This document shows, in pieces, positions 10,442 through 24,292 of a stretch of 64,000 nt of DNA. How positions within the stretch are numbered: the first letter of the stretch is position 1; each line of letters opens with the position of its first letter. A program made the position numbers and the translations under genes. Below the pieces are notes generated by a model. It was given only the letters and a program-made list of their open reading frames with translations. It was not told the DNA's origin and ran no database searches. The DNA is taken from assembly GCF_056712565.1 (NCBI RefSeq), contig NZ_CM160072.1. One strand, 5' to 3'.

Positions 10442-10449
10442 TTTTAATC

Positions 10450-10473
10450 AACAGGCGGATCTCTCCGCCTGTT
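10450..10473 (+). terminator. stem-loop after tyrB (10-bp stem, 4-nt loop, no clear U-tract)
   Basis: AACAGGCGGA-TCTC-TCCGCCTGTT read directly 9 nt after the tyrB stop. Confidence 0.4.
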
Positions 10474-10571
10474 CCTGACTCCAGCCATCCCCTACTATTC
10501 TGTCCCTTTTTTCGCCCACTTTTACATCATCTCTTTTCTATAAGTTTTTGAAAATTAGTGTTTTTAACTGT

Positions 10572-10587
10572 TGGTACGGATTGTGCA
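10572..10587 (+). promoter_or_regulatory. candidate sigma-54 (-24/-12) promoter for the 2-oxoglutarate dehydrogenase operon
   Basis: TGGTACGGATTGTGCA: GG and GC separated by 10 nt, two mismatches to TGGCACG-N4-TTGC; 36 nt upstream of the E1 ATG; an NtrC-family activator gene is in the same island. Confidence 0.55.
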
Positions 10588-20856: not shown

Positions 20857-22203
20857 TTCTGGTCGATAAACTTGCGGTTGAATCTGATGTTTGTTGAGTT
20901 TGTCATATAAAGTCTTGCGCGGCAGCTGTAATAGCCGCGCTGTCAAACTGACTTGGCCTTCCGTTTGTCGCAGCATATCTTCGATTAACTTTTTCTCGAA
21001 AGCATCAATGCAGGCGGTAAGGCCACTCTCTTCTTGCTGAGTCATTGGCACTGGCTGGTGGTGGGTCAGTAAACCGAGAACAAAACGCTCTGCATTGTGT
21101 TTAAGTTCACGTACATTGCCAGGCCAACTTTGTGATTGCAACCAGGCCAGTAACATGGGAGAAATATCAGGCAGAGGACGATTATATTTTTGTGCCGCCT
21201 GACTGGCGAACCAGTAAAACAGTTCAGGGATATCTTCTCGTCGCTGGCGTAGAGGTGGAATATTCAAGCTAACCACATTCAGACGATAATAGAGATCGAG
21301 ACGAAACAGATGTTCTTCGCTGCGACGCAGTAAATCTTCCTTGGTCGCTGCAATAACACGGCAATTCACCGGAATTAATTGATTGGCACCTAATCGTTCA
21401 ATGGTTCTTTCCTGCAATACACGTAGCAGTTTTACCTGCATTCCTGATGGCATTCCCTCTATTTCATCGAGAAATAACGTACCACCATTTGCATGTTCAA
21501 TTTTTCCAATACGCTTTTTAACCGCACCGGTAAATGCGCCCGCCTCATGACCAAATATTTCGCTTTCAAACAACGTTTCTGGTAAGCCTGCACAGTTTAA
21601 GGCAACAAACTGCCCCTGACGGCGGGTACTCCAGTGATGCAGCATTCTGGCGACGACTTCTTTACCACAACCTGTTTCACCATAAATAAGGACATCGGCA
21701 CCGGTATCTGCGACATTAAGGATCATTTTACGCAGTTGTTGCATCTGCGGACTACGACCAATCAGCACCGGGCCATTTTCCTGTTGCAGATTCGCCAGTA
21801 ATTGCTGATTTTCTAAAACCAATCGCCGTTTTTCTACCGCTCTGGCAATAATACTCAATAATTTATCTGAGCTACTTGGTTTCTCAATGAAATCGAATGC
21901 ACCATTACGCATGGCATCCACCGCCATTTCCACGTCACCGTGTCCGGTAATTAAAATAACCGGAATTTTGCTATCCATTTCGTTGATGTAACTGAGGAGC
22001 TCTAGTCCTGATATTCCAGGTAACCTGACATCGGTCAGTATAATAATGTTGGCTTGACTTTGAATAAGGGGAATACTGTGTTCTGCATCGCAACAGGAAA
22101 TAACACGATAACCAGCCAGCGTGAGCGTTTGTTCACAGGCAAAACGTACATCGTCACTATCCTCAATATAAACTATAGTAATTTCACTGGATTTATTATT
22201 CAT
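20845..22203 (-). CDS. kguR: sigma-54-dependent response regulator (NtrC family); matches KguR of the alpha-ketoglutarate utilization island
   Basis: 452 aa; receiver domain (IILTDVRLPG); AAA+ Walker A GETGCGKE; GAFTGA motif; C-terminal HTH. Gene name recalled from the UPEC literature, not verified here. Confidence 0.85.
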   Translation of the reverse strand: MNNKSSEITIVYIEDSDDVRFACEQTLTLAGYRVISCCDAEHSIPLIQSQANIIILTDVRLPGISGLELLSYINEMDSKIPVILITGHGDVEMAVDAMRNGAFDFIEKPSSSDKLLSIIARAVEKRRLVLENQQLLANLQQENGPVLIGRSPQMQQLRKMILNVADTGADVLIYGETGCGKEVVARMLHHWSTRRQGQFVALNCAGLPETLFESEIFGHEAGAFTGAVKKRIGKIEHANGGTLFLDEIEGMPSGMQVKLLRVLQERTIERLGANQLIPVNCRVIAATKEDLLRRSEEHLFRLDLYYRLNVVSLNIPPLRQRREDIPELFYWFASQAAQKYNRPLPDISPMLLAWLQSQSWPGNVRELKHNAERFVLGLLTHHQPVPMTQQEESGLTACIDAFEKKLIEDMLRQTEGQVSLTARLLQLPRKTLYDKLNKHQIQPQVYRPESSS

Positions 22204-24016
22204 GTTCTTCTCCCCATTCAGGCCAGGTTAATGTCATTACTGCGCCGCCTTCAGGATGATTACTGGCGTGGAGTGCGCCGTTCGAATTTCGGACAATTTC
22301 GCTGACTATTGCCAGTCCCAACCCCATTCCTCTACGTTTAGTGGTAAAAAATGGTTCAAATATGCGATCGACAACTTCAGGTGCAAAACCGCCACCGCTG
22401 TCTTTAATGGTAATAATAACTTTGTTATTTGCCTGGCGAATGGCGATATCCAGTCGTTTGTAAGAGCTACCTTCCATAGAATCTAAGGCGTTGCTAATTA
22501 AATTACTGAATATCTGTTCAAGACCGAGCTCATCGCAATTGACAAATAACGGCATGGATGGGGCTTTTATTCGTCGCTCAATGTTATTTTTCTCCATGCT
22601 GTGATTAAGTAACGCCACGGCGCTATACATCACTTTGATGACATCGGCAGAACCTTTAGGTACGCGATGGCGCGAGGCAAATGCTTTAAGTTCGGAAATG
22701 AGCTGCGTCATCCGCTCAATCACTGAAATAATGTGTTTCAGATTCTGTTCAACCTGCGGATACATCTCTTTTTTTAGCATAGTACGCGCGTTATCAGTAA
22801 GTGCGTGAATGGCGGCTAACGGTTGATTTTGTTCATGGGCAATTTCGGTTGCCATCTGTCCAAGCGCCGCCAGTTTGCTGGACTCTGCCAGTTCACTACG
22901 CGTAATTTGTAATACTTGTTCAGCCTGACTGCGCTCTTTTATCTCCTGTATTAATTTTTGATTGATCAATTCCAGGGCAGATGTACGCTCTTTAACCTGT
23001 TTTTCTAATGTTTCATTCGCCAGTGTTAATAATTGTTGTGCATGAGATCGCATTCTCCAGTATTTAATAAATAACAAAAACAGCAGGTAAATAATTAGTG
23101 TAATGACTAACGAAATAGCCCATGACCAGTACAGGTTATCTAAGGGGACCATAATTGTCATTTTCCAGTTAAATTCTGGAATGGCTATTTGTTGCGTATA
23201 ATATTGCGGGAATAAACAGAGTTGTTCTTTTTTATCTTTCAGGAAAGTAAAATTGCTCACGGTATAACAGGGATAATAATCCGCCGGTAAAAGATTGTCG
23301 AGACTATATTGACGGGTAGATTGTAGTTTTTGTTTTGCCTGAACAGGTAACGGTTGCAGTGTTCGCATTCGCCATGGCGATTTTGAACTTAAAAATATAA
23401 TCCCATGTTCATCATTCACGATAATATTTTCAGGACCTTCGGCCCATGCTTTTTCAATTTCATTAAGACTTATTTTTACTACTACAACACCGACAATTTT
23501 TCCTTTATCTTTTATACTTGTAGAGAGGAAGAATCCCGGTGTATTTGTAGTGCTACCAATACCGTAAAAGCGTCCATTTAAGCCAGACATGGCGTGTTTA
23601 TAATAGGGGCGATAGCTATAATTTTGCCCTACATAGCTGCCGGGGTCCTGCCAGTTGCTAGAAGCGATGGCCTTACCTTGGGTATCCAGAATAAATATTG
23701 CTGCGGTTTTGAGTTGAGTATTGAAATGTGCAATTCGTTGATTGAGTTCGCTGGACGTCATATCGTCAGGCGTAATTACCGCCTGACGGATGATATGGTC
23801 TGTTGAGAGCATATAGGGTAAAACATAAAATTGCTCGATGGTGGAATATAATGTGGACTTATACATTTCAAGCCGCATTTTATCGGTACCGGACAAGGTA
23901 TTAAAACGCAAGTGCAAAAAAGCGATTGAAACCGCGAGCATGATAAGAAAAAGTGAAATGCTTGTAATGTGAAATCGCCATTTGTTCTTAAATATATAAT
24001 TCCACGATATTTTCAT
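22196..24016 (-). CDS. kguS: sensor histidine kinase (DctB-like, periplasmic sensing domain); matches KguS
   Basis: 606 aa; two TM segments flanking a roughly 270-aa periplasmic domain; H-box ATEIAHEQNQPLAAI; ATPase G-box DSGGGF; stop overlaps the kguR start by 8 nt. Confidence 0.85.
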   Translation of the reverse strand: MKISWNYIFKNKWRFHITSISLFLIMLAVSIAFLHLRFNTLSGTDKMRLEMYKSTLYSTIEQFYVLPYMLSTDHIIRQAVITPDDMTSSELNQRIAHFNTQLKTAAIFILDTQGKAIASSNWQDPGSYVGQNYSYRPYYKHAMSGLNGRFYGIGSTTNTPGFFLSTSIKDKGKIVGVVVVKISLNEIEKAWAEGPENIIVNDEHGIIFLSSKSPWRMRTLQPLPVQAKQKLQSTRQYSLDNLLPADYYPCYTVSNFTFLKDKKEQLCLFPQYYTQQIAIPEFNWKMTIMVPLDNLYWSWAISLVITLIIYLLFLLFIKYWRMRSHAQQLLTLANETLEKQVKERTSALELINQKLIQEIKERSQAEQVLQITRSELAESSKLAALGQMATEIAHEQNQPLAAIHALTDNARTMLKKEMYPQVEQNLKHIISVIERMTQLISELKAFASRHRVPKGSADVIKVMYSAVALLNHSMEKNNIERRIKAPSMPLFVNCDELGLEQIFSNLISNALDSMEGSSYKRLDIAIRQANNKVIITIKDSGGGFAPEVVDRIFEPFFTTKRRGMGLGLAIVSEIVRNSNGALHASNHPEGGAVMTLTWPEWGEEHE

Positions 24017-24292
24017 TCATCATCCATTGAATGCATTTATATTTATCATCAGTATATTCCCTGAACAATGTTTGCGAGAACCAAAAGAGTGCCATTGTGT
24101 GAATGTGTAAGCAGAATAACCGTGGCAATGTGTGGTTTATCGCACAGGTATTCCAAATGTGATCATGCTCTTTTTATGTGACAAATCCGCAGATAATCCT
24201 TCCTTTCCCCCGCGGTTGGCGTTATGGTCAGATGGTTTTTTCAACAAACGCACAATAATAAGTTTCAACTTACTGACTATTTAGGGAAAAAT

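Follow-up and report, generated by a model that had tools for sequence, protein, structure and literature searches.

Why do some Escherichia coli chromosomes hold a second set of genes for alpha-ketoglutarate (KG) breakdown between tyrB and aphA, and how long have the genes been there? The question is raised by a 64,000-nucleotide stretch of contig NZ_CM160072.1 (NCBI RefSeq assembly GCF_056712565.1), referred to throughout as the window. Here, tyrB ends at position 10441 and aphA starts at 24293. The DNA between, from 10442 to 24292, is 13,851 bp long and is exactly the intergenic interval. An original prediction, made from the letters of the window, had placed an island at these positions, with paralogs of E1, E2 and a private E3, paralogs of SucC and SucD, a permease, an Ldh_2 dehydrogenase, a kinase and a regulator. 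Both the location and the content are borne out, and nine intact genes were found. We conclude that the region is an intact, already described, KguS/KguR alpha-ketoglutarate utilization cluster, with nothing unusual about it except apparent old inheritance. We are confident that this is the known cluster (c5032–c5041 of uropathogenic strain CFT073), which is probably an old resident of the tyrB–aphA locus, retained in this lineage.

All nine open reading frames (ORFs) are full-length. Each begins with ATG and none has an internal stop codon. The genes are as follows, with scores against protein family models, in bits, and the cut-off for each model.

10623–13367, plus strand: E1, 2-oxoglutarate dehydrogenase paralog (c5032), 914 amino acids; NF006914, 1213 bits against a cut-off of 764
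13400–14554, plus strand: E2, dihydrolipoyllysine succinyltransferase paralog (c5034), 384 amino acids; NF004309, 551 bits against 449
14566–15984, plus strand: E3, dihydrolipoyl dehydrogenase paralog (c5035), 472 amino acids; TIGR01350, 482 bits against 409
16006–17175, plus strand: succinyl-CoA synthetase beta paralog (c5036); NF001913, 531 bits against 370
17188–18060, plus strand: succinyl-CoA synthetase alpha paralog (c5037); NF004230, 470 bits against 336
18272–19771, plus strand: DASS-family dicarboxylate transporter (c5038), 499 amino acids; TIGR00785, 241 bits against 199
19783–20856, plus strand: Ldh_2-family oxidoreductase (c5039), 357 amino acids; best model NF007504, 280 bits, below the cut-off of 336
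20845–22203, minus strand: kguR (c5040), NtrC-type sigma-54 enhancer-binding response regulator, 452 amino acids
22196–24016, minus strand: kguS (c5041), sensor histidine kinase, 606 amino acids

This order, with seven genes on the plus strand and then kguR and kguS on the minus strand, is that of CFT073, at the same position, and agrees with the published map (PMC3694859). The proposed match to the CFT073 island at tyrB–aphA is firm. Briefly, the DNA is 98.6% identical over 20.5 kb, and the nine proteins are 98.1–100% identical to the products of c5032–c5041 over their full length. Differences from CFT073 are only allelic and affect around 1.4% of the DNA, flanks included. Positions 9000 to 25200 are 100% identical to E. 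coli ATCC 11775, avian pathogenic E. coli (APEC) O1 and others, and nearly so to S88 and UM146. As well as locus and gene order, CFT073 has the same binding sites for KguR and the same sigma-54 promoters (PMC3694859, PMC5318444, PMC8716947). Near-identity of the proteins to those of CFT073, along with presence of the published KguR sites and promoters, makes this an already known cluster, described by Cai et al. in 2013, 2017 and 2021.

KguR targets were searched for with the published motif, TGTGYG-N5-15-CRCRCA. This occurs three times in the window and all three occurrences are at the cluster. For sigma-54 promoters, the pattern was TGGYAY-N6-TGCW, which has four matches in the window, a count near the upper range of shuffled sequences. 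The regulatory features of the cluster are listed below. Note that some correspond to probes used in electrophoretic mobility shift assays (EMSA) with CFT073 DNA.

10374–10398, plus strand: KguR site (TGTGTG-N13-CGCGCA) for the c5032 operon; pattern match, the same site named by Cai 2013 (PMC3694859) for the c5032 EMSA probe
10572–10587, plus strand: candidate sigma-54 type -24/-12 promoter, TGGTACGGATTGTGCA, upstream of E1; pattern match
18077–18104, plus strand: intrinsic-terminator-like hairpin (18077–18097) and T run closing the c5032–c5037 operon
18136–18153, plus strand: KguR site (TGTGCGGAAAACCGCGCA) for the c5038 operon; verified by EMSA in CFT073 (PMC8716947)
18216–18231, plus strand: sigma-54 promoter, TGGCATAGCTCCTGCA, of c5038–c5039; pattern match
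24129–24146, no strand assigned: site of KguR autoregulation (TGTGTGGTTTATCGCACA), before kguS and 9 bp short of the right-hand end of the block not shared with K-12

The KguR sites and sigma-54 promoters before both operons match those in the literature (PMC3694859, PMC8716947). Note that the KguR site for the c5032 operon is within the last 70 bp of tyrB and hence outside the interval from 10442 to 24292. In place of the right half-site, CGCGCA, the tyrB gene of K-12 has ACGGCA. The half-site overlaps a patch at the 3' end of tyrB, from 10387 to 10412, with approximately nine differences in 30 bp compared to K-12; the gene is otherwise 97% identical. The encoded peptide is LNTAN in K-12 and LNAQN in the window. 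The GG and GC elements of the promoter upstream of E1 are kept in a Citrobacter-like ortholog (TGGTACGAATACTGCA) and, judged by its sequence, this promoter would function with RpoN. For the c5038 promoter, RpoN dependence and RpoN binding have been shown in CFT073, and this is the only promoter for which that is so (PMC5318444). The reported transcription start, 30 nucleotides before the c5038 ATG, would map to position 18242, which fits the promoter at 18216–18231. Just 3' of the c5038 KguR site, one base differs from CFT073 (CGCGCATA in the window and CGCGCACA in CFT073), and the core motif is unchanged. The site upstream of kguS is identical in sequence to the CFT073 site verified by EMSA (PMC8716947), and kguSR is subject to autoregulation in that strain (PMC8716947). 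A two-operon structure was determined by reverse transcription PCR (PMC3694859), in agreement with the terminator-like hairpin between the operons. The two further matches to the sigma-54 pattern, at 43101–43116 (plus strand) and 59887–59902 (minus strand), may be due to chance.

What would the cluster do? In CFT073, the c5032–c5041 block lies between tyrB and aphA, and contains two operons induced by KG via KguS/KguR (PMC3694859). Deletion mutants have a growth defect on KG, in anaerobic conditions, and lose fitness in the mouse urinary tract (PMC3694859). Going by experiments in CFT073, KguS, a membrane kinase, would sense KG and activate the NtrC-type regulator KguR. This would bind imperfect inverted repeats before the two operons, and at its own promoter. 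The c5038 promoter would then be used in a sigma-54 (RpoN)-dependent manner, as, by its sequence, would that of c5032. Of the products, c5038–c5039 would provide a DASS dicarboxylate transporter and an Ldh_2 oxidoreductase, and c5032–c5037 a dedicated 2-oxoglutarate dehydrogenase, with E1, E2 and an E3 of its own, together with succinyl-CoA synthetase. Imported KG would be converted to succinyl-CoA, and then succinate, yielding NADH and ATP. The conversion would take place under anaerobiosis, when core sucABCD is repressed. In the window, all of the genes, catalytic motifs and regulatory sites are intact and near-identity predicts the same function as in CFT073.

We turn to what occupies the locus in other strains. 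In K-12, tyrB and aphA are 1,106 bp apart, and yjbS lies between them in AT-rich DNA. Homology between the window and K-12 stops at 10439 and resumes at 24155, leaving an unshared block of 13,715 bp. The replacement segment in K-12 (positions 4307–5275 of locus L002) is 969 bp in length, has a guanine plus cytosine (GC) content of 31.8%, and contains the orphan gene yjbS. No remnants of the cluster were found in this segment by DNA search (word size 7) or six-frame translation. Among 5.8 billion proteins, just 248 are relatives of YjbS, and those with names come almost without exception from E. coli or Shigella. Of 5426 complete E. coli genomes, 1043 have a match over 80% or more of the island and count as carriers of the cluster; the yjbS segment is found in 4338. 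Hence, these are near-exclusive alleles. Among the carriers sampled, the cluster is at least approximately 98.9% identical. Because K-12 has an unrelated yjbS segment, and the two alleles are near-exclusive, we conclude that the locus is a replacement polymorphism, not an insertion at an empty site. The original prediction was of about 13.8 kb inserted where K-12 has a short spacer. The K-12 interval is more than a spacer, and insertion is doubtful given that the cluster is syntenic in E. albertii and Citrobacter, with divergence like that of its flanks.

Some genomes depart from this picture. Around 45 have neither standard allele, and deletions mediated by the insertion sequence (IS) IS1 are among them. 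In E. coli EC96 (NZ_CP060748.1), little of the yjbS segment remains, IS1 having replaced the rest, and the annotation gives aphA as a pseudogene. The K-12 yjbS segment is 90–100% identical among E. coli genomes, making it more variable than typical core DNA.

Carriers of the cluster include sequence types ST131 and ST1193, ATCC 25922, APEC strains, the Nissle 1917 derivative EcN_Sk and an O127:H6 strain. The named carrier lineages are what we take to be phylogroup B2. It had been suggested that the cluster marks the strain as similar to extraintestinal pathogenic E. coli. However, EcN_Sk and the O127:H6 strain carry the cluster too. Because of these last two carriers, the cluster appears to mark lineage rather than pathotype.

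Was the cluster inserted or retained? We think it probable that the tyrB–aphA locus already held the genes before Escherichia and Citrobacter diverged, and that they were kept in B2-type strains, are decaying in part of E. albertii, and were replaced by the yjbS segment in other E. coli. The association with uropathogenic E. coli (UPEC) would then result from retention. An ancestral cluster, and a derived yjbS segment, would be the most economical interpretation. The competing explanation, favoured by the literature and by the original prediction, is recent horizontal gain in an ancestor of uropathogenic (B2) E. coli, with insertion between tyrB and aphA. We consider this unlikely. In particular, the locus and both junctions are shared with E. 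albertii and Citrobacter. Citrobacter sp. R56, C. koseri, a Citrobacter-like contig and E. albertii-type assemblies all have the same nine genes flanked by tyrB and aphA, and the Citrobacter-like contig runs dnaB-alr-tyrB-cluster-aphA-yjbR-uvrA. The junction sequences, including the sigma-54 promoter, can be aligned with those of E. albertii and Citrobacter. Recent gain would be in keeping with presence of the cluster in just 1043 of the 5426 genomes, but it is the K-12 segment that looks foreign instead, having a low GC content and an orphan ORF confined to E. coli and Shigella.

Sequence divergence also argues for retention rather than recent gain, being equal to that of tyrB, aphA and uvrA at the level of both synonymous substitutions per site (dS) and protein. 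For the window compared to E. albertii, dS is 0.27–1.1 in cluster genes and 0.31–0.72 in flanking genes, so that values for the cluster overlap those for the flanking core genes. Protein identity to E. albertii is 92–99% for the cluster, 93% for TyrB and 97% for AphA. Composition can be read in more than one way. The enzyme genes have a host-like GC content of 51–54%, but kguSR, at 40–44%, falls below its neighbours, as recent gain might predict. However, GC at third codon positions in the cluster genes is adjusted to that of each host, and the low GC content of kguS recurs in every host examined. It is therefore an intrinsic trait and no mark of recent transfer. Separate recent transfer of kguSR was considered as a source of the low GC content and rejected, the same offset being found in every host examined. 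Scans for tRNAs and repeats, together with gene content, identified no tRNA, integrase, IS element or flanking direct repeat at the cluster. Hence, with no mobility gene, and host-like composition, this is not a classical mobile genomic island.

Damage to the cluster in E. albertii is informative. In three E. albertii-type assemblies (L093, L097 and L098) kguR has one internal stop codon. In addition, L093 has a 499-bp deletion in E2, and approximately 150 codons of E1 are gone from L097. The E. albertii type strain (L011) has an intact kguR, on a contig that ends before the enzyme genes. The cluster thus seems to be in decay among some E. albertii, and varied lesions of this kind are what differential loss at an old locus would be expected to leave.

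Several points weigh against the overall interpretation of an old, functional and retained cluster. First, kguR and kguS have dS values of 0.9–1.1 compared to E. albertii, above those of the other cluster genes. Second, compared to the Citrobacter-like contig, dS ranges from 1.1 to saturation in cluster genes and 0.94–2.0 in flanking genes; these values are near saturation and discriminate poorly. Third, at the corresponding position of the Citrobacter-like tyrB, the KguR site of the c5032 operon is not preserved. Fourth, Entomohabitans and Pectobacterium carry the cluster elsewhere in the chromosome, and Vibrio diazotrophicus has it in a rearranged form. The module has therefore moved at deeper levels, which lends some weight to recent gain, as does the finding that non-enteric relatives of the transporter are from Pseudomonads and Burkholderiales (PMC5318444). 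Indeed, horizontal transfer into UPEC is how the literature accounts for c5038 and the island (PMC5318444). Fifth, carrier phylogroups were taken from strain names, and the comparison within Escherichia covered E. coli and E. albertii. Finally, the function predicted in the present strain is drawn from near-identity to CFT073. Literature searches on evolution of the cluster, in Citrobacter, E. albertii and phylogroup B2, found no paper on retention versus insertion in the library covered. Ancestral retention would be the sole point at which our interpretation goes beyond the literature, and it departs from the published horizontal acquisition of c5038.

Are the enzymes those of KG breakdown? 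E1, E2 and E3 all score above the NCBIfam equivalog cut-offs for the 2-oxoglutarate dehydrogenase complex, and have the expected lipoyl, catalytic and redox motifs. Thus, E2 contains the lipoyl-lysine motif ETDKV and the catalytic sequence DHRIIDG, and E3 has a CLNVGC disulfide, two GxGxxG folds and HAHPT. Both subunits of the ADP-forming succinyl-CoA synthetase also exceed equivalog cut-offs, with the phosphohistidine loop GHAGA in the alpha subunit. E1 is 99.5% identical to its CFT073 counterpart and 48.8% identical to K-12 SucA. The equivalent figures, in comparisons with K-12, are 50% for E2 and SucB, 39% for E3 and Lpd, 56% for the SucC paralog and 68% for the SucD paralog. Grouping of the paralogs with core sucABCD-lpd would have counted against the original prediction. 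They do not group in this way. Because identity is 39–68% to the core enzymes, and 77–93% to the Citrobacter cluster, the cluster paralogs form a group separate from the core enzymes. Similarly, E1 of the island is 59% identical to that of the Vibrio diazotrophicus cluster, compared to 49% for K-12 SucA. A search for E1 homologs returned solely near-identical E. coli variants and was uninformative about deeper origin.

We also considered whether the dehydrogenase complex acts on some other 2-oxoacid, such as 2-oxoadipate, with KG merely an inducer. E1 is, after all, just 49% identical to SucA, and enzymology of the complex was not found in PMC3694859, PMC5318444 or PMC8716947. Nevertheless, E1 and E2 are well above cut-offs that are specific for 2-oxoglutarate, and the succinyl-CoA synthetase genes are co-transcribed with those for the complex. 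Furthermore, deletion of c5032–c5037 specifically impairs anaerobic growth on KG, and has no such effect with C4-dicarboxylates, glucose or glycerol (PMC3694859). A different substrate is hence very improbable. Also very improbable is a redundant and decaying copy of tricarboxylic acid cycle genes, without selected function in the present strain, since the lesions in kguR, E1 or E2 of some E. albertii-type assemblies are set against nine of nine intact ORFs with catalytic motifs in the window, ratios of nonsynonymous to synonymous substitution (dN/dS) of just 0.02–0.10 for the cluster genes, the high identity and coverage among carriers noted above, and the fitness defect of CFT073 mutants in mice (PMC3694859).

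The cluster matches core sucABCD and lpd in its enzyme families, domains and catalytic motifs. It differs in having its own E3 gene within the operon, in its sigma-54 promoter and control by KguR and, according to the literature, in functioning anaerobically. In E3, of both E. coli and the Citrobacter-like ortholog, Gln is found at the position of Lpd residue Glu354. The E354K substitution in Lpd generates a NADH-insensitive, anaerobically active enzyme (reviewed in PMC7240943). More speculatively, Gln in place of Glu354 could let the complex tolerate NADH when oxygen is absent, and this may be why the complex carries its own E3. Unlike the core suc operon, the cluster has no counterpart of the SdhX small RNA. 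The region of around 40 nucleotides 3' of the sucD paralog has no Rfam match, and a search of positions 9000 to 26000 with Rfam gave none up to an E-value of 0.1; therefore, neither SdhX nor any other known RNA has a counterpart here.

The regulatory proteins were predicted to be a DctB-like kinase and an NtrC-like regulator. KguR, which is 100% identical to the CFT073 protein, is a member of the NtrC family of enhancer-binding proteins, with a receiver domain, the Walker A motif GETGCGKE and GAFTGA. The Citrobacter ortholog consists of Response_reg, Sigma54_activat and HTH_8 domains. KguS (99.8% identical to CFT073) has the architecture of a DctB-type sensor kinase. It comprises a double-Cache sensor (dCache_1, residues 50–228, E-value 1.5e-15), HisKA (385–448) and HATPase_c (495–600), with an H-box of HEQNQPL. 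Its nearest annotated relatives, outside of its own group, are kinases named DctB or AauS with approximately 30–39% identity. At 30–39% identity to proteins named DctB, KguS is therefore no DctB ortholog, and only the likeness in architecture holds. In a scan of a genome collection with a KguS alignment, DctB-like kinases at 31–39% identity predominate among the matches listed. C. koseri, a carrier of the cluster, is missing among those matches, so the scan cannot show absence in any species. Like KguS/KguR, both MifS/MifR of Pseudomonas aeruginosa, which is specific for alpha-ketoglutarate (PMC4482717), and DctB/DctD pair a Cache-domain kinase with an NtrC-type sigma-54 activator for dicarboxylate uptake; note that MifS was likened to KguS by description, not sequence. 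In contrast to these systems, KguSR additionally governs a complete set of catabolic enzymes. The kguS and kguR genes overlap by 8 bp (22196–22203), which suggests translational coupling. The 3' ends of kguR and c5039 converge with a 12-bp overlap (20845–20856) and have no terminator between them.

The transporter, C5038, is 100% identical to that of CFT073 and has VcINDY and plant 2-oxoglutarate/malate translocators among its relatives. It is in the same family as CitT and TtdT, the DASS-family succinate antiporters of E. coli, with 27–29% identity. VcINDY, also a DASS protein but a symporter, is about as distant. Since C5038 is similarly distant from antiporters and VcINDY, sequence does not discriminate between symport and exchange of KG for succinate. 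Speculatively, it is possible that C5038 could swap one for the other. The best model for C5039 is the HcxB/YbiC equivalog, named for the Ldh_2-family hydroxycarboxylate dehydrogenase of E. coli, and the best solved structure is PDB 2g8y. However, C5039 is 34% identical to HcxB/YbiC of K-12 and, as listed above, scores 280 bits where the curated cut-off is 336. It is therefore not an HcxB ortholog, but a member of the Ldh_2 family only. A literature search on YbiC/HcxB gave nothing usable about substrate. In every genus examined, the Ldh_2 gene comes immediately after the DASS gene, including where kguSR separates the two from the dehydrogenase genes. This constant adjacency suggests that the role of Ldh_2 is tied to the imported substrate. 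Possibly, C5039 might reduce alpha-ketoglutarate to 2-hydroxyglutarate, as a redox sink, though this is speculative.

The cluster is, as foreseen, the largest accessory block in the window. Other blocks absent from K-12 are 5,489, 5,027, 2,114 and 1,577 bp, the second of these being cut by the start of the window. Even at the size seen in ATCC 11775 (approximately 7.2 kb), this truncated block would be smaller than the 13,715 bp at tyrB–aphA. Their contents are summarised below.

1–5027: block between qorA and dnaB, also present in CFT073, with a LacI-family regulator (3937–4971), a CoA-transferase (2110–3681), an enoyl-CoA hydratase (1338–2117) and a major facilitator superfamily transporter cut by the window start
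7593–9169: genes for a pnuC-like nicotinamide riboside transporter and an AAA-family ATPase, between alr and tyrB; absent from the K-12, E. albertii-type (L097, L098) and Citrobacter-like (L010) loci
36508–38621: LysR-family regulator and divergent LrgA/LrgB-like genes, where K-12 has yjcF
52194–57682: five-gene ATP-binding cassette transporter (substrate-binding protein, two permeases and two ATPases), between yjcO and fdhF

Finding the cluster here merely puts the strain among the carrier lineages. The cluster itself is an established fitness factor for colonisation of the urinary tract, where it makes KG from the host usable without oxygen. If ancestral retention is true, a 'pathogen-specific island' would instead be a retained ancestral metabolic trait, lost by most E. 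coli, and its association with virulence would be read differently.

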